A stretch of DNA of 64,000 bases, from contig JAFXOV010000003.1 of the NCBI GenBank assembly GCA_017528425.1, positions 25,174 to 89,173 of the forward strand, given 5' to 3'. Below are positions 1,698 through 11,852 of this stretch, one piece after another. The DNA is from Elusimicrobiota bacterium. Lineage in GTDB: Bacteria; Elusimicrobiota; Endomicrobiia; Endomicrobiales; Endomicrobiaceae. The position numbers and the translations under genes were made by a program. Within the stretch, counting starts at the first letter, position 1, and every line of letters starts with the position of its first letter. The notes below the pieces were generated by a model. It did not search any database. It was not told where the DNA came from and saw only the letters and a program-made list of their open reading frames with translations.

Positions 1698-3494
1698 TTA
1701 AATATCTAATTGTTTAAGGACATCAAAAGTTTTGTTATAAAACTCTCTTAAATTTGTTTCATTATTTGAAGAATTTTGAGAATATAATACGATAGAACAA
1801 TCGTCTATAATTTCTTCTATTTGTTTTATCAAATCAGCATTAACAGACTTTTGTTCCAACTCTTTTCTTATTTTGTAAGCTGTCAAACCATCCGCAGACT
1901 GTCCCAAAACCGATGCAAAATATTCCAATAATCCTTTGTACATGTATTCATAAAATTCGGTTGCAACTTTTGTTTTCTTTGCCTTTTGGAAATATTTTTT
2001 TGATTTTTTGTATGCTTTTTTATTTTTTAATTTCTGTTGGTCTTTATTTATGTATTCAATATACTTAATAATCAATCTTGCCAAAATATATAAAAGTAAT
2101 AACGAACCTAAAATTATCCACAATACAGGCTTCTTTATAAACTCATAAATTTTAATAAAAACAGATATGTCTATGTTCGGTTGAACTTGACCTGTGATAT
2201 CCTTATCCCCATGAAAATCTTTATTATTTTCCACAATACCATTTGCAATATCAGAACTTTTTTTAACTGATAAATCTTCCAATACATTAACTTTTATACT
2301 TTTTGCAGGCAAATTTTTTACTTGTTTCATCTGTATATCAAAATATTTTTGAGAAAGGATTTTTATTTCTCCCTCACCTGAACTTAAAGGCATTATTAAA
2401 GTTGTAAATTCTTTTCCCGTTTCTTTATCACCTTGCTTTATTATTTTTTCGGATGTCTCATATTTCTTTAAATTATCGGAAAGCATAATTTCCGGTTCTT
2501 GAATTGTTCTAATATTACCGTCCCCGGATATTGTTATTTTTAAATCAAACGGTTCATTTTCTTTTTTATCTTTTTTATCTACGGTTGCAGACATTTTAAA
2601 ATTACCGACCATACCGATATTTTGAGGAACTTTTGAAACTTTTATATTTATTTCGTCGGTTACCAATTCAACGTTTTTACTTCTTCTGAAAAAACTGGCA
2701 AAAAAATCATCGTAGTTCTTGGAAAAATCTTCTATAGATACCATTAATGTTGATTTATCTATTTTTATGTTACCTTCTTGTTGAGGATACAGTTCGGTTG
2801 AAACTTCGGTAACGACATAATCTCTGCCGTTAATTTGTGTCCTGTAATTATTTTGTGTCGTATTACCGGTAAAAAAGCCGATAAAGCTCGGTCCCTGATA
2901 AGAAGGATTAGACAATAAATTAATCGATGTATAAAAAGAAAAAGTATATATTATTTTTTCATTGATATACGCTGTTTTTTTATTAACTTTTGCTTCAACA
3001 AAAACAGCCTTTGATGTATCAAAATTATAAACTTGCGAAGATTGTTTCTGTTGCGGTATTTGGGTATTTTGAACAGATACGGAACTTACCGTTTGCGCCG
3101 GTGAAACAGTTATTTTTATAGGATCTGTTTCATATGTTTGGCCGTCATAATCAAGTTTAAAAGAAGGAATTTCATATTCACCTTCTTTTTTAGGGCTTAA
3201 TGTGTATATATAACTTACGGTATTTGTTACCTGCCCGTTAATAATAGACATACTTTTGGACTGCGAAGAACCGTAAGTATTGAAATCTTTTAATGTCGGC
3301 GCAGAAAAATAAGGTAAACTTTTTGAATCGCCTGTTATTGAAATTGTAAGCTGCAAAGTTTCATTTAACGCAACAGATGTTTTGTTCACCGAAGAATACA
3401 TTTCAATTTTATTTGCATATACAAATGCTGTTGAAATAAAACAAATTGTTAAAGCATAAAATAACTGTCTGAATCTTTTCATAATTTTTACCAT
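1698..3494 (-). CDS. batD: BatD-like protein (oxygen-tolerance family); last gene of the Bat operon
   Basis: 598 aa with an N-terminal signal peptide, a long beta-rich extracytoplasmic region, one late TM helix (VLWIILGSLLLLYILARLI) and a helical cytoplasmic tail. It sits after the TPR BatC-like gene. Its start overlaps the upstream stop (ATGGTAA). Confidence 0.7.
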   Translation of the reverse strand: MVKIMKRFRQLFYALTICFISTAFVYANKIEMYSSVNKTSVALNETLQLTISITGDSKSLPYFSAPTLKDFNTYGSSQSKSMSIINGQVTNTVSYIYTLSPKKEGEYEIPSFKLDYDGQTYETDPIKITVSPAQTVSSVSVQNTQIPQQKQSSQVYNFDTSKAVFVEAKVNKKTAYINEKIIYTFSFYTSINLLSNPSYQGPSFIGFFTGNTTQNNYRTQINGRDYVVTEVSTELYPQQEGNIKIDKSTLMVSIEDFSKNYDDFFASFFRRSKNVELVTDEINIKVSKVPQNIGMVGNFKMSATVDKKDKKENEPFDLKITISGDGNIRTIQEPEIMLSDNLKKYETSEKIIKQGDKETGKEFTTLIMPLSSGEGEIKILSQKYFDIQMKQVKNLPAKSIKVNVLEDLSVKKSSDIANGIVENNKDFHGDKDITGQVQPNIDISVFIKIYEFIKKPVLWIILGSLLLLYILARLIIKYIEYINKDQQKLKNKKAYKKSKKYFQKAKKTKVATEFYEYMYKGLLEYFASVLGQSADGLTAYKIRKELEQKSVNADLIKQIEEIIDDCSIVLYSQNSSNNETNLREFYNKTFDVLKQLDI

Positions 3495-4339
3495 GTTTTC
3501 CCGCTTCTTCCTATTTTCCGAACAGCTTTACCACCATCTTTAGCATTATCAAGATTTTGCTTATCTTGTTTATCAAAATAATCTAAAAGATGTTGATTGG
3601 GATTCTGTTTCTGATTATTTTGTTTATCGTCTTTATCCTGTTGTTTGCTGTCGTCCTGTTTATCTTGATCTTTTTGTTTATCTTGTTGATTATTATCTTT
3701 ATCATTCTGATTATTTTTATCTTTGTCTTGATTATCTTTGTCCTTTTTATCCTGATTATCTTTTTTATCTTGTTGATTATCTTTATTTTCATTGTTTTGA
3801 TTCTGTTTATCTTTATCGTTATTGTCTTTATTATCTTGATTATCTTTGTTTTGATTATCTTGTTGTTTATTATCTTTATTTTTATCGTTTTTATTATCTT
3901 TATTATTATCTTTATTTTGTTGTTGTTCCTGTTGCAAAAACTCTATATTTTGTTTTGCTGCCATATCAGAACTATCCAATTTTAAACATTCTTTATAGTA
4001 ATTTAAAGCCGAATCTTTATCTTGTTTCCTGTATGCGGTATTTCCCATATTATATAATGTCGCACTTCTCAAATTAATGTCCTTCGTATTATTTAAAACA
4101 GTTTTATAATTTTCCATTGCTTTATCGTACTCGCCTTTTCTGTAATAAGCATTTGCCAAATTATAATTAATCATAGCATCTTCACTATTACTCTCTTTTG
4201 CTTTTTCGTAATATTCTATTGCTTTATCAAAATTATTTTTTTGATATTGTTTATTCCCCTTAACCATATTTTCATTTGCATAAGAAAATACAGAAAACAA
4301 AAACATTATAAAAATTGAGCTTAATATTTTTTTCATCAT
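3488..4339 (-). CDS. batC: BatC-like TPR-repeat protein with a long D/N/K/Q low-complexity tail
   Basis: Signal peptide, then about 3 TPR units (AIEYYEKA.., LANAYYRKGEYDKAMENY.., MGNTAYRKQDKDSALNYYKECL), then about 115 aa of KDN/QDK low complexity. Operon position follows two VWA genes. Confidence 0.7.
   Translation of the reverse strand: MMKKILSSIFIMFLFSVFSYANENMVKGNKQYQKNNFDKAIEYYEKAKESNSEDAMINYNLANAYYRKGEYDKAMENYKTVLNNTKDINLRSATLYNMGNTAYRKQDKDSALNYYKECLKLDSSDMAAKQNIEFLQQEQQQNKDNNKDNKNDKNKDNKQQDNQNKDNQDNKDNNDKDKQNQNNENKDNQQDKKDNQDKKDKDNQDKDKNNQNDKDNNQQDKQKDQDKQDDSKQQDKDDKQNNQKQNPNQHLLDYFDKQDKQNLDNAKDGGKAVRKIGRSGKTW
3593..3934 (-). repeat. Low-complexity coding repeat (Asp/Asn/Lys/Gln-rich) inside batC
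   Basis: aa 136-249 read QQEQQQNKDNNKDNKNDKNKDNKQQDNQNKDNQDNKDN... The DNA consists of degenerate ttatctttat / ttgtt units. Confidence 0.8.
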
Positions 4340-4343
4340 TCTC

Positions 4344-5348
4344 TTATATTCTTCCGTCCTTACGTTTTTTCGTTGTCGGCATAAACAAATATATTAACAA
4401 AAACAGCAATGCCACAGCCAAAGGATAATAAAATCTGTCTTCCAAATTATTAAAAATATTTGCCGTTCCTTCAATTTTATCGAGTTTGTTCAATCTGTCA
4501 ATAAGACTGCTTAAAGACGGATTTTGATTCATATTATAATATCTTCCGCCGGTAGCTAATGCTATTTGTTCCAAGGTAGAAGAATCAAGCTTTGTCACAA
4601 CCGTCTTGCCTTTTTCATCTTTCAAATATTCTTTAAATTGTCCGTTTTCATATGTAGGGATAGGCTCACCTTTTTCCGTTCCTATACCCACACAAAATAT
4701 TTTTGTTTGACTTTCTTTTGCAAGTTCTAATGCTTGTTTCAAATCCCCGTCAAAACTTTCACCGTCGGTAATAACAACAAGAGCTTTTGCATTTGAAGGA
4801 ACTTTTTTCAAGCTCTCACAAGCCAACTCTATCGGTGCTGCAATATTTGTCCCGTAAAAAGGAACAGCATCCGTATCAAGCAAAGATAAAAACATTTCAA
4901 AAGCTTTTATATCCGATGTTAACGGGCACTGCCAATAAGCCTGACCTGCAAAAGCAATCAAACCTATTCTCTGTCCTTTTAATTTTTCGGACAAATCTTT
5001 AAAAACAATTTTTGCTCTTGTAATTCTGTCAGGTTTTAAATCTTGTGCCAACATACTTTTTGATACATCTATGGCAACAACTATATCACTCGATAAAGAT
5101 TTCGCTTCAACTTGTTTTAATCCCCATTTAGGTCTTGCAAGAGCAACAACTATAAAGAACAATGCCAAAATAAAAGCCGTATTTTTTATAAACACTTTTA
5201 AGAAGTCTACATTCAGTAAATTTTTCCATAAACAAGAGTTCGTAAAATCATTTATTCTCTTTTTGGACAACTTAAAAGAAATCAAAAATATTATTAATAC
5301 GCCCAAAACAACTGTTAAAAATAATAAATTATTTACATTTTCAAACAT
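4344..5348 (-). CDS. batB: VWA-domain membrane protein, BatB-like
   Basis: 334 aa. N-terminal TM helices, a MIDAS motif DIVVAIDVSKSM, later ITDGES, and a C-terminal TM helix. Paired with a second VWA gene. Confidence 0.8.
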   Translation of the reverse strand: MFENVNNLLFLTVVLGVLIIFLISFKLSKKRINDFTNSCLWKNLLNVDFLKVFIKNTAFILALFFIVVALARPKWGLKQVEAKSLSSDIVVAIDVSKSMLAQDLKPDRITRAKIVFKDLSEKLKGQRIGLIAFAGQAYWQCPLTSDIKAFEMFLSLLDTDAVPFYGTNIAAPIELACESLKKVPSNAKALVVITDGESFDGDLKQALELAKESQTKIFCVGIGTEKGEPIPTYENGQFKEYLKDEKGKTVVTKLDSSTLEQIALATGGRYYNMNQNPSLSSLIDRLNKLDKIEGTANIFNNLEDRFYYPLAVALLFLLIYLFMPTTKKRKDGRI

Positions 5349-5350
5349 TA

Positions 5351-6337
5351 TTACGGCAACCTTTTCAAAATTGTAATTTTAAATAAAAATCCTAATATTA
5401 AAATCCAAAAGCCGGGAAACAAAAATTTCATAAATTGTTCATTATAATTTACCGATTTCGTATGCTCTATTGTAGTTTTTTCAAGATCGTCTATACTTGA
5501 AAACGCTTTATATAAATCTTTTGATGTTTGTGCGGAAAAATATTCCCCGTCGGTTTTTGCTGCAATTTCTTTCAACAAATTCTCATCTAAATCGTTTCCT
5601 TGAGCTTGAACCTTTCTTTTCCCCCAAAACAAATCGTCTATCTCATAATAATCTCTTTCACTTCCGACTCCTACCGTATAAACTTTTATACCGTTATCTT
5701 TTGCAAGCTGTGCTGCCGTCATAGGGCTGATTTCTCCCCTGTTATTTGCTCCGTCGGTAAGCAAAACAACAATCTTACTTTTACTGTCAACTTTTGAAAG
5801 CCTGTTAACTGCCGTTGCAAGTGCATCTCCTATTGCTGTTCCGTCGGCTTTTGTTATTTGTGTATTTATTAAATCAATAAAATTCACCAACGCATCTTTG
5901 TCTAATGTCAATGGACATTGTGTAAATGCTATCGAGCTGAAAACTACAATTCCCATCCTGTCATTTACTCTTTTTAGAACAAATTCTTTTGCCCTGTTTT
6001 TTGCATTTTGTATTCTTGAAACATTAACTGTAGGATCTATAGCTTCCATACTTGTAGATGTATCCATAACAAGCATTATATCTATACCGTTTGCTTGAAA
6101 AGTTTCATATTTAGACGAACTTTGAGGTCTTGCAAGAGCACAAATAACAAGACATATTCCCAATAATATCAATATGTCGGGAATTATCAATAATTTTGTT
6201 CTAAGACCTTTTTTATTACCGAAAAAGGATAATGAAGAAAATTTCAATAATCGCTTGGAATAATATTTTTTCTTAAAAAAGAAAAATATTAAAATTAAAG
6301 GAATTAAAGATAATAAATAAACATATAAAAATCTCAT
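5351..6337 (-). CDS. batA: VWA-domain membrane protein, BatA-like
   Basis: 328 aa. Two N-terminal TM helices, a MIDAS motif IDIMLVMDTSTSM, LLTDGANN, and a C-terminal TM helix. Confidence 0.8.
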   Translation of the reverse strand: MRFLYVYLLSLIPLILIFFFFKKKYYSKRLLKFSSLSFFGNKKGLRTKLLIIPDILILLGICLVICALARPQSSSKYETFQANGIDIMLVMDTSTSMEAIDPTVNVSRIQNAKNRAKEFVLKRVNDRMGIVVFSSIAFTQCPLTLDKDALVNFIDLINTQITKADGTAIGDALATAVNRLSKVDSKSKIVVLLTDGANNRGEISPMTAAQLAKDNGIKVYTVGVGSERDYYEIDDLFWGKRKVQAQGNDLDENLLKEIAAKTDGEYFSAQTSKDLYKAFSSIDDLEKTTIEHTKSVNYNEQFMKFLFPGFWILILGFLFKITILKRLP

Positions 6338-7209
6338 AGTTTTTCTATAAAACCTTTTGCTGTTTCAAAATCTTTTTCTATTTCTTCCGATGACGGTATA
6401 AGTTTTGCAAATTTAACGAAATCACAATTAATCAAATAATTTTTTAATTCTCTGTTGTGTTCCGGTGCAATTTTATTTTTCAACATAGAATAAAACTCTG
6501 TTGTTGTTTTTTCCATTCCGTCAACGGAATAAGTTCTTGATATGTAAAATCTGATAATATCCGATAATCTATCGTAATATTCTTTTACATGACCTTTCTC
6601 TATTAAACTAAGAGTCTGTAATTCATCCAATTGTTTTAATGCATATTCTTTCGGAGGAATAGATTGTATTATTTCTTCCGGTGTGGGTTTTCTGTTTTTC
6701 TTTTTAATATACCTGTAAATGAAGTATATTGCCAAGCTTAAAATTATTAATGCTATCAAAAACGGTAAATACCATAATAAGCCATGATGAAATTTAATGA
6801 TACCTTTTATATCTAAAATATCCGTCGGCGGATTTTTAGGATCCAACACACTTTTTACTTCTATAGGCAATGCATTTGTTTTTACGAATTTTTTTTGATC
6901 AACATAAGTGTAAGGAATCTCAACCGATAAAAGTTCTGTCTTCCCTGCTTTATAAACGGATAAAACCAAATCTACACTACCGTCTTGTGTCGGTTGAACA
7001 TTTAGAAGTTCAAAATCTCCGAAATTTGCTTCGGCAAGTTTTTCTTTATCCAAAGAATCAACGGTTAACCCTTCGGCTTTTATATTAAGAACAACTTTAT
7101 CACCGACTGTTATATCATTTTGCGGTGATAAAGTTTGTTCAAATGCATATAATCCGACAACTGATACAAATAATATTACAACTGCTAATGCTTTTTTATA
7201 TAAAAACAT
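6334..7209 (-). CDS. Membrane protein of the Bat operon (DUF4381-like position and architecture, tentative)
   Basis: 291 aa. Signal/TM N-terminus, an extracytoplasmic beta-rich segment, a central TM helix (LWYLPFLIALIILSLAIYFIY) and a helical C-terminal domain. It overlaps batA by 4 nt. It occupies the slot between DUF58 and batA that such proteins hold in known MoxR-VWA operons. Confidence 0.6.
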   Translation of the reverse strand: MFLYKKALAVVILFVSVVGLYAFEQTLSPQNDITVGDKVVLNIKAEGLTVDSLDKEKLAEANFGDFELLNVQPTQDGSVDLVLSVYKAGKTELLSVEIPYTYVDQKKFVKTNALPIEVKSVLDPKNPPTDILDIKGIIKFHHGLLWYLPFLIALIILSLAIYFIYRYIKKKNRKPTPEEIIQSIPPKEYALKQLDELQTLSLIEKGHVKEYYDRLSDIIRFYISRTYSVDGMEKTTTEFYSMLKNKIAPEHNRELKNYLINCDFVKFAKLIPSSEEIEKDFETAKGFIEKL

Positions 7210-7250: not shown

Positions 7251-9893
7251 TTATTTGCTTTCCTGTTTGTTCGCATCTTCTTCAATCTTTTTCAATTCTT
7301 CTTTTAATGCTTTTTCTTTTTCCGCCTGTGCAGCTTTTATTTTTTCCTGCTCGATTTTTGCTTCTGTTTTTGCTTTATCGTTTGCATGCTTTTCCGCTAA
7401 TTTTACTTTTTCTATTTCGGCATTTGCATGAGCTCTTGCTTTATTATTTGCTTCCTTTTCCGCCGCTTTTATTTTTGCTTCTTCGGCTTTAAACTCATTC
7501 GATGCCTTTGCTATTGCTTCTTTTTCTATGGCCTTAATTCTTTCTTCTTCCTTTTGTGATGCCAACTTTCTTTCAGCTTTTATTTTTTCCGTTATTTCTT
7601 TTTCCGCTTCTTTCTTTGCTGCTTCTATTCTTTTTGCTTCTTCTTTTGCCGCTAATTTTTCAGCTGCTTTTTTCTCTGCTTGGAGTTTTTTTGCTGCCGC
7701 CTTTTCTTCGGCTTCAAGTTTCTTTAATTCCTCTTTTGATAAACCTTCTCTTGCTGCCATTTCAGCTTTCAATTTCTCTTCTTCGGCTCTTATCTGTTCC
7801 GCCGTTTTTGCTTGTGAAGCTTCGAACATAGCTGCCTGTTCTTTTTCGGCTTTTATCTGATCTTTCATTTTATTTTCTGCATCTTTAACAGCGTCTTTAA
7901 TTTTCTTTGCATCTTCTTTGGCTGCTTGTTTATCTGCTGCTTTTTTCTCTGCCATAAGTCTTTTTGTCTCTGCTTTTGCTGCATCTTCTTTTTGTTTTTG
8001 TATTGTTTTTAATTTTTCAATCTCTGCATTTGCTTGAGCTTTTGCTTTATCATTTTCTGTTTTTTCTGCTACCTTTATTTTTTCAATCTCGGCTTTTGCT
8101 TGAGCTTTTGCTTTCTCGTTTGCTTGTCTTTCTGCTGTTTTTACTTTTTCTTGAGCAATTTTTGCCTCAGCTTTTGCTTTGTCTTTTGCTTGTTTTTCTA
8201 TAGCCTTTTCTTTTTCTTTTGCAGCTTTTTCGGCAGCTTTAACTTTTTCTTTTTCTTCTTTTGCCTTTGCAGCTTGTTCTGCTTTTATTTTCTTTTCTTG
8301 TTCTTTTAACTCTTTTGCTTTTGCAGCCTGTTCAGCCTTTAGCTTTTCTTTTTCGGTTTTTGCTTTTTCTTTTGCTTCCTTTTCGGCTGCTTTAGCTTTC
8401 TCTTTTGCAGTCTTCGCATCTTCTTTAACAGCCTGTTCAGTACTTGCAGCTTCTTCTTTTATCTCGTTTTCTTTCTCGGCTATCTCGTTTTTGATATTCT
8501 CTTCTTCCGTCTTTACTGCAGTTTCTATTTTTTCTTTTTCCGCACTTACTTGTTCTTTTACATCATTTTCTTTCTTTTCTGCATCTTCTTTTATTGCTTG
8601 CTCATTTTTAACAATTTCATCTTTGGTTTCTTTTATTTCTTCTTTAACATTTGCTTCGGTTGCTTCGGCATTATCTTTTATATCTGCAACTACGACACCC
8701 GAAGATGTTTTTACCTCGGTTGAAACATCCGACTTATCTTTTTTCAATGATTTTATAGGTTCCAAAGATGCATCCATGCCGATTGTTTCACCGAAAGCAT
8801 CACTGTTTAATTCTTTTAATTTCGTTGCAGCCAACTCATGTCCTTGATCTGCTGCCATTTTAAACCATTTTTTTGCTTCATTTAAATCTTGTTTTACACC
8901 CTGACCTTCAGCATACATAAATCCTATCATATATTGTGCATCCGGATCTTTCTTTAATCTGTTATATTCCAGATAATAATCCATAGCTTCTTTATAATCT
9001 TTTTCTACTTCATATCCGTTATAATACATTTCTCCCAACATATAAATGGCATCGTCATTACCGTTAACCATTGCTCTTCTGAAATATTCCAAAGATGCAA
9101 CCAAATCTATTTTTCCGGTTTCACCTTTATAGTAAATAAGTCCTAATGAATATTCGGCGTCGGCATTTCCCTGATTTGCCGCTTCATCATACCATTTTAA
9201 TGCTGCTTTATAATTTTCCCTGTCATAATAATAATTACCTAACTCGTTTTCTGCCTTCGCATATCCTTGGTTAGCTGATTCTTTATAATATTGCAAAGCT
9301 TTTTCTTCATTTTTAGGAGTTCCCTGTCCCTTTCTATACATTTCGGCTAAACAAAACTGAGCTCTTTTATCTCCCTGTTCTGCCGCTTTCAAATACCATT
9401 TATATGCTTTTTCATAATCTTTTTGTACCAATCTTCCGTTATAATACAAATCTCCGAGATAATATTGTGCTTCATAAAATCCGTATGCTGCGGATTCTTC
9501 ATAATATTTCAAAGCTTTTTCGTCGTCTTTGGTTGTAGCTCTTGCATTTTCATACATTTCACCGAGATAAAACTTTGCTTCTCCCACACCTTGCTCCGAT
9601 GCTTTTTGATACCATTTAAAAGCTTCTTTATCACTTTGATGAACATTGCCCGAACCGCTGGCACATAAACCTGCTAATTCATATTGTGCCTGAGCATGTC
9701 CCTGTTGAGCGGCTTTTTTAAACCACTCATATGCTTGAACATAATTTTGTCCTACTCCTTCGCCGTGAAGATATTGCATTCCTATCTCATACTGCGAACT
9801 GGCATTCTTTTCGTTTTCGTTAACAACCGCTGCCATAACATAAGTAACACCGGACAAAAGTGCAACCATAATCAAACTGACCAATTTTTTCAT
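7251..9893 (-). CDS. Secreted Sel1-like-repeat protein fused to a ~475-aa Lys/Glu/Ala-rich coiled-coil tail
   Basis: 880 aa. Signal peptide MKKLVSLIMVALLSGVTYVMA. About 9 Sel1 units carry the signature G.GV.Q[ND]Y..A..W[FY].KAA.QG (aa ~33-360). From aa ~405 to the end the sequence is AEKEAKEKAKxE-type repeats. Confidence 0.85.
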   Translation of the reverse strand: MKKLVSLIMVALLSGVTYVMAAVVNENEKNASSQYEIGMQYLHGEGVGQNYVQAYEWFKKAAQQGHAQAQYELAGLCASGSGNVHQSDKEAFKWYQKASEQGVGEAKFYLGEMYENARATTKDDEKALKYYEESAAYGFYEAQYYLGDLYYNGRLVQKDYEKAYKWYLKAAEQGDKRAQFCLAEMYRKGQGTPKNEEKALQYYKESANQGYAKAENELGNYYYDRENYKAALKWYDEAANQGNADAEYSLGLIYYKGETGKIDLVASLEYFRRAMVNGNDDAIYMLGEMYYNGYEVEKDYKEAMDYYLEYNRLKKDPDAQYMIGFMYAEGQGVKQDLNEAKKWFKMAADQGHELAATKLKELNSDAFGETIGMDASLEPIKSLKKDKSDVSTEVKTSSGVVVADIKDNAEATEANVKEEIKETKDEIVKNEQAIKEDAEKKENDVKEQVSAEKEKIETAVKTEEENIKNEIAEKENEIKEEAASTEQAVKEDAKTAKEKAKAAEKEAKEKAKTEKEKLKAEQAAKAKELKEQEKKIKAEQAAKAKEEKEKVKAAEKAAKEKEKAIEKQAKDKAKAEAKIAQEKVKTAERQANEKAKAQAKAEIEKIKVAEKTENDKAKAQANAEIEKLKTIQKQKEDAAKAETKRLMAEKKAADKQAAKEDAKKIKDAVKDAENKMKDQIKAEKEQAAMFEASQAKTAEQIRAEEEKLKAEMAAREGLSKEELKKLEAEEKAAAKKLQAEKKAAEKLAAKEEAKRIEAAKKEAEKEITEKIKAERKLASQKEEERIKAIEKEAIAKASNEFKAEEAKIKAAEKEANNKARAHANAEIEKVKLAEKHANDKAKTEAKIEQEKIKAAQAEKEKALKEELKKIEEDANKQESK
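7254..8681 (-). repeat. Degenerate in-frame tandem/dispersed coding repeats (~60 nt units) encoding the KEA coiled-coil
   Basis: Near-identical units include ttttcaatctctgcatttgcttgagcttttgctttatc (about 8018-8055), tttttcaatctcggcttttgcttgagcttttgctttctc (about 8080-8118) and a related copy at about 7400-7440. The peptide repeats are A[EK]K.ANDKAKAQA.AEIEK.K. Confidence 0.75.
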
Positions 9894-9916
9894 ACTTCCT
9901 CCAAAAATATATTATT

Positions 9917-10804
9917 TTAATAATGTTTTAATGCTTTTTCTTGTCTATATTTAAAAAACTTTATTAATTCCGATATATAGGGTTTATCCGTATATATATT
10001 CATTACGTCTGTTTTTGCCGCTTTAAATGTTTCATCCAAATAATTTTCGTGTAATCTTAAATTTTTATAATATTCATTTCTAACATCTTTAGACGAAAAA
10101 TCTATATCCGTAAACAATCCGGTTTCTGCATCTTGTATCCCGAAAATCCCCTTTTCCGGAATATTTTGTTCTTTGGGATCCGAAATTTTTATACAAACCA
10201 AATCATGTTTTTTCGCGGTAACTTTTAACATTCTATCAAAATTCTCATCATAGAAATCAGATATTAAGAAAATTAAAGCTTTTCTTTTACAAAGTCTGTT
10301 CAAAGACTTCAACGCATTTTCAATACTCGTTTTATCGTTTTGCGGTTTATAACTCAAAATTATATCTATTAGTCGCAAAATATGTTTTTTGTTTTTTTTA
10401 GGTTTTATGTACTGCTCAACCTCGTCCGTAAAAGTCAAAAGACCTGCTCTGTCACTGTTTTTAAGTGCCGAAAAAGCAAGCACAGCAGTAAGCTCCGCAA
10501 TCAAATCGTTTTTTGTAACAGTTTTGCTTCCAAACTGTCCCGAAGCACTTAAATCAACAACAAACATTACTGTCTGTTCCCTTTCTTCGTCATATTTTTT
10601 TATGTAAGGTTTATTTCTTCTGGCTGTAACATTCCAAGAAATTCTTCTTACATCATCACCGGGAACATATTCTCTTACTTCACTGAATTCCAAACCCTGA
10701 CCTTTAAAAACACTATGGTATTTCCCCGAGAAAACATCATCAACAAGTTTTTTTGATCTGAGTTCTATTTTTTTTATTTTTGATAATATTTCTGATTTTA
10801 ACAA
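9917..10804 (-). CDS. DUF58 family protein (VWA-like partner of MoxR)
   Basis: 295 aa. The hallmark stretch EFSEVREYVPGDDVRRISWNVTAR is followed by VMFVVDLSASG. It lies directly downstream of the MoxR ATPase. Confidence 0.85.
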   Translation of the reverse strand: MLKSEILSKIKKIELRSKKLVDDVFSGKYHSVFKGQGLEFSEVREYVPGDDVRRISWNVTARRNKPYIKKYDEEREQTVMFVVDLSASGQFGSKTVTKNDLIAELTAVLAFSALKNSDRAGLLTFTDEVEQYIKPKKNKKHILRLIDIILSYKPQNDKTSIENALKSLNRLCKRKALIFLISDFYDENFDRMLKVTAKKHDLVCIKISDPKEQNIPEKGIFGIQDAETGLFTDIDFSSKDVRNEYYKNLRLHENYLDETFKAAKTDVMNIYTDKPYISELIKFFKYRQEKALKHY

Positions 10805-10856
10805 TCTTATTATCCTTAATTTAATTACTCTTCAGCCACTATCGTCATCTATAATT

Positions 10857-11852
10857 TTACGGTACTTCAACACCGTCAAAAATTTGTTTTATTATATCAT
10901 CACTCGTCAATTCCTGTGCATCCGCATCATAAGTTGTAAGAACTCTGTGCCTTAAAACATCCGGACCTATATCTTTAATATCTTCCGGCGTTACAAATCC
11001 TCTTCCTTTTAAAAATGCCAGAGCTTTTCCTGCTCTGTTCAAATTAATCGTAGCTCTTGGAGATGCTCCGAAAGCTATAAGATTTTTTAAATTTTCAAGA
11101 CCGTATTTTTCCGGTTTTCTTGTTGCAATAACAATATCGACTATATAATTTTTTACTTTCTCATCAACATATATTTCATCAACAGCCTGCTTTGCTTCCT
11201 CTAAATCTTTTAATGTTATAACCTGATTTACTTCTATCTTTTTTCTTGTGGAATATCTGTCTAAAATTGCTCTTTCTTCCTGTTCTGTCGGATAATCCAA
11301 CTTTAACTTAAGCATAAATCTGTCAACTTGAGCTTCCGCCAACGGATATGTTCCTTCCTGTTCTATAGGGTTTTGTGTTGCCAAAACCAAAAAAGGATTC
11401 GGTAACGGATATGTTACATCTCCTATTGTAACTTGTTTTTCCTGCATAGCTTCCAAAAAGGCACTTTGAACTTTTGCCGGTGCTCTGTTAATTTCGTCTG
11501 CCAATATAAAATTTGAAAAAACAGGGCCTTTTTTTACATTAAAATCTCCCTGTTTTGAATCGTATATAAGAGTTCCCGTTAAATCAGAAGGTAATAAATC
11601 CGGAGTAAATTGTATTCTTTTAAAATCTCCCGATACCGCCTTTGCCATTGTATTTACAGCTAAAGTCTTTGCCAGCCCCGGAACACCTTCCAACAAAATA
11701 TGTCCGTCGGATAGCAAGCCTACCAACATTCTTTCAAGAATATAGGTTTGTCCGACAATAACTTTTGACACTTCACTTAAAAGTCCCATTATGGACAAAG
11801 ATTGCTGTTTTACCTTCTCGTTTAAACTTTTAATATCAATACTTTCTGCCAT
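10857..11852 (-). CDS. moxR: MoxR-family AAA+ ATPase
   Basis: 331 aa. Walker A LLEGVPGLAKT, Walker B/sensor ILADEINRAPAKVQSAFLEAMQE, and VLATQNP. There is a strong SD (GAGAGGTGGAG) upstream. Confidence 0.92.
   Translation of the reverse strand: MAESIDIKSLNEKVKQQSLSIMGLLSEVSKVIVGQTYILERMLVGLLSDGHILLEGVPGLAKTLAVNTMAKAVSGDFKRIQFTPDLLPSDLTGTLIYDSKQGDFNVKKGPVFSNFILADEINRAPAKVQSAFLEAMQEKQVTIGDVTYPLPNPFLVLATQNPIEQEGTYPLAEAQVDRFMLKLKLDYPTEQEERAILDRYSTRKKIEVNQVITLKDLEEAKQAVDEIYVDEKVKNYIVDIVIATRKPEKYGLENLKNLIAFGASPRATINLNRAGKALAFLKGRGFVTPEDIKDIGPDVLRHRVLTTYDADAQELTSDDIIKQIFDGVEVP

Follow-up and report, generated by a model that had tools for sequence, protein, structure and literature searches.

A reading frame of 880 codons in a Bat operon is a genuine gene, under selection and accessory to a single lineage, and the evidence supports a two-module chimera in which a Sel1 solenoid is joined to a long helical region rich in Lys, Glu and Ala. 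The helix of this tail is built on an 11/3 (3.67) repeat, and not on a 7-residue one. We see about an even chance that the product is a Sec-exported accessory of the MoxR-DUF58-Bat envelope system in Ruminimicrobiellum, a genus of the Endomicrobiaceae within the Elusimicrobiota, consisting of a Sel1 adaptor and a hendecad hairpin rod. The features are collected in Table 1, numbered along the window, by which we mean the whole 64,000-nucleotide stretch of DNA that was analysed.

Table 1. Features of the Sel1-tail gene and its operon neighbours
Feature	Position	Strand	Basis
Whole gene, 880-aa Sel1 + K/E/A helical protein; stop 7251-7253	7251..9893	-	ORF list and translation
Shine-Dalgarno GGAGGA, 4 nt 5' of ATG; DUF58 stop 23 nt away from gene	9897..9902	-	Sequence reading
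Signal peptide of Sec type (aa 1-21), made up of a KK n-region, a hydrophobic core and a VMA/A cleavage motif	9831..9893	-	Read from translation
Nine Sel1-like repeats and capping helix, aa 30-368	8790..9806	-	Pfam, AF2, Foldseek, dN/dS
Flexible S/T/V-rich linker, aa 369-400	8694..8789	-	AF2 pLDDT 27-35, alignment
First helix, aa 401-491, hendecads of I/V-K-x-x-I/V/A type	8421..8693	-	AF2 pLDDT ~73; 11-residue rows
Variable K/E/A zone, aa 492-556	8226..8420	-	Interspecies indels; pLDDT 35-47
Predicted hairpin arm 1, aa 557-716	7746..8225	-	AF2; collinear in four species
Predicted hairpin tip, aa 717-719, including G717	7737..7745	-	Both AF2 models interrupt the helix here
Predicted hairpin arm 2, aa 720-880, conserved KQE(S/N)K at end	7254..7736	-	AF2 pLDDT ~90; dN/dS
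Diverged tandem repeats, 66-nt (22 aa) and 33-nt (11 aa) periods	7972..8352		TRF, repeat spacings 33/66 nt
54-nt (18 aa) repeat pair	8243-8352		TRF, repeat search
Distal diverged copy of 7903-8284 block, 63-70% identity	7297..7546		Repeat search
Upstream operon: MoxR AAA+ (10857-11852), DUF58 (9917-10804)	9917..11852	-	Pfam
Downstream operon: DUF4381-like/LB_053-like (6334-7209), BatA (5351-6337), BatB (4344-5348)	1698..7209	-	Pfam and NCBIfam
Downstream operon, continued: BatC (3488-4339), BatD (1698-3494)	1698..7209	-	Pfam and NCBIfam

Is this a real gene of the Bat operon?

Bat stands for Bacteroides aerotolerance, and operons of the Bat/MoxR-vWA kind occur widely across phyla, Bacteroidota, spirochaetes and Elusimicrobiota among them (PMC3557215). 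Here the operon is complete and runs in the order MoxR, DUF58, Sel1-tail gene, DUF4381-like, BatA, BatB, BatC and BatD, and the Pfam matches of these neighbours bear out the operon setting given in the preliminary description, which was made by eye. The Sel1-tail gene lies on the same strand as the genes around it, is separated from them by gaps of 23 and 41 nt, and has a strong Shine-Dalgarno sequence, but it is not among BatA-E: searches of Pfam and NCBIfam returned Sel1-type matches only, and no BatA, BatB/vWA, BatC-TPR, BatD or BatE model. A scan of the locus for promoters and terminators gave matches at chance level, and two antisense frames on the plus strand (7528-7860 and 8179-8847) were dismissed, as they only mirror the low-complexity coding sequence. 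By eye, the N-terminus MKKLVSLIMVALLSGVTYVMA/AVV is that of a Sec signal peptide, whose cleavage motif is kept in aligned orthologues; since there is no Cys, and hence no lipobox Cys, the protein is not a lipoprotein.

Misassembly had been named in advance as one outcome that would undo the description, and it can be set aside. An identical gene is found on an ENA contig, an independent strain contig matches at 98.9% nucleotide identity with no gaps and no difference in length, and the longest exact repeat within the gene is 20 nt.

What is the Sel1 module?

The first half of the protein, earlier described as a Sel1 solenoid behind a signal peptide, is just that. The Sel1-like repeat profile PF08238 is matched in 7 stretches at E 4.1e-63 (208 bits, where the cut-off is 30.7), as expected of tandem helix-turn-helix repeats of 36-44 aa, and AF2 folds the module with pLDDT >90 into nine helix pairs and a capping helix, 19 helices in all, which both the model and Foldseek place among the right-handed alpha/alpha solenoids. 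Crystal structures of Sel1 proteins are recovered at E 2e-21 to 4e-14, with 6ok3 first (E 2e-21, TMt 0.60), followed by LceB 8sxq (8sxq_B, TMt 0.84) and c5321 4bwr, and including HcpC 1ouv. Among aligned orthologues the module has a dN/dS of 0.03-0.07.

A homologue search with the whole protein finds generic multi-domain Sel1 proteins only, and the protein's NCBIfam matches to MotX, ExoR, AlgK and MerG are all sub-threshold, none reaching the family cut-off. The periplasmic adaptors MotX, ExoR and AlgK likewise pair a signal peptide with an SLR solenoid, with which they hold partner proteins; unlike the Sel1-tail protein, however, these adaptors lack a long helical tail and lie outside Bat operons.

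How is the tail built?

A disordered, S/T/V-rich linker of about 35 aa and low AF2 confidence follows the solenoid at about aa 366-400, as had been proposed, and its length differs among species, being ~75-87 aa greater in two of them (G010 and G004). The tail beyond it (aa 401-880) holds 24.8% Lys, 22.1% Ala and 21.9% Glu, so that it is indeed rich in these residues but, at 69% for the three together, not composed 'almost exclusively' of them. Its net charge is +6, and in 480 residues there is no Pro and one Gly (G717). The duplicated block AEKxANDKAKAQAxAEIEKxK, which had been picked out by eye, is present in four copies.

The periodicity that had been called heptad-like is of another kind. 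The Fourier spectrum of the tail peaks at 3.67 (10.1 for ILVMF and 13.7 for K/R, against a shuffled 95% maximum of ~6.5), while power at 3.50, where the apolar residues of a canonical left-handed heptad coiled coil would register, is 0.1-1.0. Of the 7 tails examined in this way, 6 peak at 3.65-3.70 and the 71-aa tail of G009 peaks weakly at ~3.6; at 3.5 the orthologous tails likewise show nothing. The hendecad register is maintained regularly across ~480 aa, same-sign charges recur at i+11 (z 7.3), and the DNA periods of 33 and 66 nt, and of 132 nt in the orthologue L038, are multiples of 11 codons. Within the hendecad, positions a, e and h are 60-70% Ala plus ILV, Lys accounts for 70% of b and 48% of f, and Glu/Asp for 40% of d; the a/e/h core is not more conserved than the other positions (67% versus 61%, p = 0.36).

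At the DNA level, the near-identical units of ~60 nt reported earlier are not what Tandem Repeats Finder detects, which is units of 33/66 nt that are 62-83% alike: the 66-nt period at 7972-8262 has 75-83% matches and the 33-nt period 66%. These units support an origin of the tail by tandem duplication of 33/66-nt segments, and to that extent the earlier proposal stands. The duplications in this genome are old rather than recent, both because the copies are only 62-83% identical and because four species, at a dS of 0.6-0.9, share the last 316 aa in collinear form and keep them under purifying selection.

Does the tail fold back on itself?

In the full AF2 model, helices span residues 401-491, 522-716 and 720-879, and a model of the tail has a helix at 2-194; both runs place a helix-break-helix at 714-719, with arms that reach pLDDT 97 and lower values before about aa 560. 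Residues from about 557 to 879 are thus predicted to form one antiparallel two-helix hairpin of ~24 nm, with its turn at ~G717 and a pLDDT of ~90, in monomer models that draw on alignments of no more than 4-11 sequences. A fold-back can also be what AF2 predicts for helices that in reality make parallel oligomers. The indel-free zone begins at ~565, in agreement with the ~557 at which pairing should begin, judging by the length of arm 2, and the only small indels in the conserved zone fall just upstream of the hairpin tip. It counts against the hairpin that neither G010 nor G004 conserves G717. In the modelled geometry, the repeat blocks at 7297-7546 and 7903-8284 would face each other. The AF2 models suggest a folded hairpin of ~24 nm rather than a straight helix of 72 nm.

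Foldseek likens the shape of the tail model most closely to the long antiparallel hairpins of MCP 2ch7, of the SMC/Rad50/MukB arms and of the antifreeze protein Maxi (4ke2), all at non-significant E values (0.13-9), and these proteins are unrelated to the tail in sequence, location and function. Maxi, from flounder, is Ala-rich with an 11-residue repeat.

The tail might instead be an extended single alpha-helix of the ER/K kind, up to ~70 nm long, or a parallel homo-oligomeric hendecad fibre or stalk, and we judge this unlikely, if well worth keeping in mind. Charged residues abound, with their signs in balance; spacings that suit salt bridges within a helix are over-represented (E-to-K at i+3, z 5.4; K-to-E at i+4, z 2.5), and the apolar stripe has Lys along one flank (b, f) and Glu along its opposite flank (d), which could permit ion pairs between the helices of a parallel oligomer; one orthologue (L038) carries ~900 aa of repeats without a Gly or Pro break, and oligomers are beyond the reach of AF2 monomer runs. 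Yet only 52% of the residues are charged while 22% are Ala, E-to-K pairs stand at chance level at i+4 (z 0.8), and a periodic apolar seam is present, none of which is typical of classical single alpha-helices. The break at 714-719 appears in both AF2 runs between arms of very high confidence, and the conserved zone equals the paired region in length, and these points argue for the hairpin.

A periodicity of 11 residues, with a narrow Ala-rich apolar face adjoined by Lys, also brings to mind the 11-mer repeats of LEA group 3 proteins and apolipoproteins, and so a hydrophilic tail that is largely unfolded in solution and folds onto membranes or client proteins, as a periplasmic shield or membrane stabiliser against oxidative and other stresses. 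The loose constraint on length between species and the stress-associated operon, with its 'aerotolerance' label (PMC3557215), would suit this idea, which we nevertheless regard as improbable. Against Pfam, where HMMER's composition correction may mask weak similarity, the tail matches no family at E <= 10, LEA_4 (LEA group 3, PF02987) and the apolipoprotein families included. Lys is abundant along only one flank and Glu along the other, a pattern that class-A lipid-binding helices do not share, and the conservation of 316 aa in exact sequence and length is more than a shield that depends on composition alone would need.

Other searches add little: PDB sequences gave nothing significant, a tail-only homologue search gave 0 at E <= 1e-5 among 8000 candidates, and a profile search of 1.84 billion representatives returned 3 fragments while missing known orthologues. 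Because composition correction weakens them, the tail-only and profile searches are uninformative on whether such tails are absent elsewhere.

Where did the gene and its tail come from?

A Sel1 gene lies between the DUF58 and DUF4381-like genes in 12 genomes of the genus and in G024, and in none of 10 other genera of the order. Since DUF58 is followed directly by the DUF4381-like gene in those 10 genera, the Sel1 gene is an insertion into the Bat operon; it is therefore, as first proposed, an extra outside the described Bat set, and does not accompany the operon wherever it occurs, as canonical Bat proteins would. The best Sel1 matches in other Endomicrobiaceae genera lie outside Bat operons, and one distant Elusimicrobiota MAG (L016) has a different Sel1 gene in another operon slot. 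Tailless orthologues occupy the same operon position, and the tail was added after the insertion of the Sel1 gene, with a single origin in a subclade of Ruminimicrobiellum and later changes in length. In one branch it has become fixed and indel-free, and in another it has re-expanded with near-identical 44-aa units; in L038 these are 132-nt units with 95% matches in 7.7 copies.

Orthologous proteins accordingly have 505 aa (in G009), 870-921 aa or 1377 aa (in L038), and tails in close species run from about 135 to about 1000 aa, so the variation in length predicted between strains is seen between species, but not between the two strains at 98.9% identity. Residues 565-880 are almost indel-free in the four species, with a dN/dS of 0.08-0.29 (dS 0.56-0.91), compared with 0.23-0.39 for aa 366-564. 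Most differences between the strains fall in the variable zone, at aa 513-557, and 2 of the 24 differing codons lie within aa 565-880.

Could the tail be no more than low-complexity sequence without functional effect, which replication slippage has expanded and which a working Sel1 protein puts up with? The tailless orthologues in the same operon position and the near-identical units of L038 are what one would expect of such an expansion, and low-complexity tails are likewise present on BatC and on another protein (C63). The selection on the last 316 codons in four species, with almost no indels at a dS of 0.6-0.9, the scarcity of strain differences in that zone and the regular hendecad register over ~480 aa make it very unlikely.

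Sel1 proteins are common among host-associated bacteria, which lends some appeal to a surface or secreted stalk that displays a eukaryote-like Sel1 domain to a host, for example rumen ciliates, its operon place being incidental. Even so, although the genus may be ciliate-associated (PMC11257099), we find this the hardest reading to credit, as no beta-sandwich T9SS C-terminal domain, autotransporter or anchor is recognised in the tail, the Sel1 module sits at the cell-proximal N-terminal end, which is wrong for an anchorless stalk, and the operon position is strictly conserved.

What might the protein do?

Most likely, we infer, the protein serves the Bat complex in the periplasm, as an accessory that combines an adaptor with a rod. 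After Sec export, the Sel1 groove would dock on the periplasmic part of the DUF4381-like protein, BatD or BatC; the flexible linker, the ~90-residue helix and the variable K/E/A spacer would come next, and the hairpin rod would then provide a rigid arm or spacer about as long as the periplasm is wide, which may keep the Bat complex apart from a further layer of the envelope or form bundles with other rods of its kind. The rod could span the periplasm or be exposed at the surface, as the preliminary description had it. The range in tail length among close species argues against a precise ruler.

Two known systems offer partial parallels. EnvC and PcsB are exported proteins with a long intramolecular antiparallel coiled-coil hairpin in the periplasm, an arm by which they dock to a membrane complex (PMC7668044), but a PDB-sequence search finds no similarity to the tail, and EnvC has heptads, arms of ~60-85 residues and a LytM domain, whereas the Sel1-tail protein has predicted arms of ~160 residues, Ala-rich hendecads and Sel1 repeats. 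Domain II of TolA (of the gamma-proteobacterial type) is also a periplasmic, proline-free helical region rich in Lys, Ala and Glu, which links a transmembrane helix at the N-terminus, the partner of the TolQR motor, to globular domain III at the C-terminus (PMC12204202). The Sel1-tail protein differs from TolA in its cleavable signal peptide, its N-terminal Sel1 module and its free helical C-terminus.

What does it mean for Bat biology?

The wider significance is modest, because the gene is confined to a few uncultured rumen species, and because Sel1 domains, like charged helical tails, are common in themselves. Nevertheless, a selected, lineage-specific subunit that combines an interaction solenoid with a long rod offers a bait for Bat partners and for the geometry of the complex, and the tail is a case study in how a domain grows from 11-residue units. 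A bolder possibility, and a doubtful one, is that the hairpin acts as a strut of periplasmic length that connects the MoxR/vWA Bat complex of the inner membrane, via Sel1, with either the outer membrane or a lattice of like rods; at the far end of the rod we find no transmembrane segment, lipobox, peptidoglycan-binding or outer-membrane domain. Were the strut to prove true, the Bat system of these bacteria would be an envelope-spanning assembly, and the protein would furnish a first structural handle on Bat function.

Gene, signal peptide and operon setting

The DNA comes from a rumen Endomicrobiaceae MAG in the genus Ruminimicrobiellum (PMC11257099). Its Sel1 gene, with GGAGGA 4 nt upstream of the ATG, starts 23 nt after the DUF58 stop and ends 41 nt before the next gene. 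The N-terminus of the product, MKKLVSLIMVALLSGVTYVMA/AVV, reads as a putative Sec signal peptide with no lipobox cysteine. Nine Sel1 repeats had been described behind a signal peptide, and this is correct, as Pfam (E 4.1e-63, 7 stretches), AlphaFold2 (nine helix pairs plus a capping helix, pLDDT >90, 11-sequence alignment) and Foldseek matches to crystal structures (6ok3, E 2e-21, next LceB 8sxq and c5321 4bwr) all indicate. The protein is an SLR family member, and its Sel1 module resembles periplasmic adaptors; the NCBIfam matches to MotX, ExoR, AlgK and MerG stay below threshold. The short linker motif before the helix, kept across species even where the surrounding linker differs, may be a docking strand.

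Features discussed, with positions in the window unless another contig is named, and substitution rates
Feature	Position	Strand	Description	dN/dS	dS
Sel1 + K/E/A gene	7251-9893	minus	ORF of 880 aa
Sel1 module				0.03-0.07	0.69-1.23
S/T/V-rich linker	residues 366-400	minus	low confidence in model
Linker motif	8694-8730 (aa ~388-400)	minus	T-E/D-V-K/N-x-S-S-x-T/V...A-V/D-V/I-K/N-D-N
Linker + variable zone	aa 366-564			0.23-0.39	0.74-1.62
Conserved tail zone	aa 565-880			0.08-0.29	0.56-0.91
Distal repeat copy	7297-7546
Repeat block	7903-8284
BatC	3488-4339	minus	~140-aa N/K/D/Q low-complexity tail downstream of TPR domain
Gene after BatD	3-1583	minus	runs off window edge
C63 protein, same genome, outside window	C63:3526-8364	minus	exported, 1612 aa
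Orthologue L038	3501-7634 of Ga0265299_10000003		747-kb rumen contig
Orthologue L026	G001:C245:1-1686
Distant Sel1 protein	L016:7830-9449		539 aa, P/Q/K-rich central linker

The gene comes directly after DUF58 in 12 genomes (11 of the same genus, and G024 from a neighbouring one), with the DUF4381-like gene following wherever the contig extends. It is absent from this slot in ten further genera from the order, two of them close by DUF4381-like identity (57-58%), where DUF58 directly precedes the DUF4381-like gene; it is therefore an insertion into the canonical operon. The earlier view that it lies outside the described Bat system holds, and a canonical Bat protein is out, since the Pfam and NCBIfam matches are Sel1-type; TolA identity is likewise ruled out. 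In the distant Elusimicrobiota MAG Gx485_bin153, a different Sel1 gene sits one slot further on in another Bat operon, with the DUF4381-like gene on one side and BatA on the other, which suggests that Bat operons recruited Sel1 proteins more than once.

A hendecad tail

Residues 401-880 are rich in K (24.8%), A (22.1%) and E (21.9%), with a net charge of +6, one glycine, zero proline and four copies of the block AEKxANDKAKAQAxAEIEKxK. The periodicity had been taken for heptad-like, but over residues 481-880 the Fourier peak lies at 3.67 residues (power 10.1 for ILVMF and 13.7 for K/R, against a 95% shuffle maximum of ~6.5), with only 0.1-1.0 at 3.50. Written in rows of 11, the tail holds its register over long stretches, in six segments across 480 aa; column b is 70% Lys, f 48% Lys and d 40% Glu/Asp, all independent of the register fit, while the 60-70% Ala or Ile/Val/Leu at a/e/h is partly produced by that fit. 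Charges of the same sign also repeat at a spacing of i+11 (z 7.3). These data make the tail a hendecad (11/3) helix rather than a heptad coiled coil, and it is not a classical ER/K single helix either. Other long orthologous tails peak at 3.65-3.70, and the 71-aa tail of G009, a related genome, more weakly near 3.6.

The C63 protein, with five CarboxypepD_reg-like beta domains, ~960 aa of E/K/A/R repeats (11-aa unit EEAARLAKEEK, Fourier peak 3.64-3.65) and one further beta domain, gives this small genome a second giant charged helix of hendecad type. Closer by, BatC measures 229-283 aa among genomes with a complete gene, and the gene after BatD, with homologues in the same place in G006 and G012, encodes a signal peptide, an E/K-rich middle and a TVTKTVTRTVTV-type C-terminus, and matches Peptidase_C39 weakly (E 1.2e-6).

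Predicted structure of the tail

In the full-length AlphaFold2 model, helix 401-491 (pLDDT ~73) and a low-confidence stretch (485-547) precede helices 522-716 and 720-879 (pLDDT ~90). Modelled separately from four sequences, aa 520-880 gave helices 2-194 and 201-360 around a loop at 195-200 (aa 714-719), with mean pLDDT 87.4, pTM 0.51 and values up to 96-97 symmetrically in both arms, lower over the first ~40 residues. Foldseek returned no significant match for the tail (best E 0.13); its top shapes, none significant, are all long antiparallel helical hairpins (2ch7 chemoreceptor, SMC/Rad50/MukB arms and 4ke2, the Ala-rich flounder antifreeze Maxi with its 11-residue repeat). Two independent observations agree: because arm 2 has 160 residues, pairing is expected from ~aa 557, and the indel-free conserved zone starts at ~565; moreover, that zone's few small indels adjoin the predicted tip. 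The C-terminal part thus fits a predicted antiparallel hairpin of 160 residues per arm, computed at ~24 nm.

An extended single helix (72 nm if all 480 residues were straight) or a parallel oligomer is rather unlikely. The hairpin model has its caveats: the alignments are shallow, AlphaFold2 monomers can fold back helices which truly form parallel oligomers, G717 is missing in two of the four collinear species, and conservation at core positions of the tail is not significantly above that elsewhere in it.

Assembly, selection and tail growth

The gene is no artefact and is under selection. Three public contigs, possibly re-assemblies from one sample, encode the identical protein; one of them, a 116-kb ENA scaffold, was inspected and has the same neighbours. 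An assembly artefact in the repeats is out, since an independent metagenome contig (L035) aligns without a single gap over 2455 nt of the gene (98.9% identity, 27 mismatches); of the 24 codons that differ, only two lie within aa 565-880. The collinear forms of four species (880 aa here, 870 in G007, Ca. Ruminimicrobiellum bubulum, 921 in G010 and 912 in G004) are nearly indel-free from aa 565 to their C-termini.

The preliminary description saw near-identical, recent units of ~60 nt. They are in fact 66 nt (22 aa) and 33 nt (11 aa), 62-83% identical, the distal copy matches the repeat block at 63-70%, and the longest exact repeat within the gene is 20 nt; the duplications are thus old rather than recent. 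Growth by tandem duplication does stand, as does length variation between species; between strains, the single pair compared (n=2) showed none. In the Sel1-domain tree all K/E/A-tail bearers form one clade (support 100/99), whose sisters are 385-433 aa proteins with short non-repetitive tails, and lengths run from 505 aa (G009) through 870-921 aa in the collinear species to 1377 aa (L038). The L038 tail, with no Gly/Pro break before its last 10 residues, carries near-identical tandem units (94-95% matches), namely 7.7 copies of a 44-aa unit (132 nt, 95% matches) alongside units of 207 nt and 120 nt, and is either a recent re-expansion or possibly a mis-assembly of repeat number. In the G001 orthologue the reading frame changes past ~aa 340, and the end of the contig cuts off the K/E/A-coding stretch; either the gene is frameshifted or a pseudogene, or the assembly broke within the repeats.

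What might the protein do?

An LEA- or apolipoprotein-like shield or membrane binder is improbable, and LEA_4 is not detectable in the tail. Neutral low-complexity expansion is more doubtful still, as strict conservation within one branch speaks against it, and a surface or host-interaction stalk is the least probable. The wide length range in the tail clade also argues against a precise ruler. Bat systems have been proposed to form a membrane or periplasmic complex (PMC3557215), and we see about an even chance that the 880-aa protein is an exported adaptor-plus-rod accessory, in which the Sel1 groove would bind a periplasmic component of the Bat system, with the hendecad rod as arm or spacer. 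Its nearest functional analogue is EnvC with its periplasmic antiparallel coiled-coil arm (PMC7668044), to which it has no sequence relationship.
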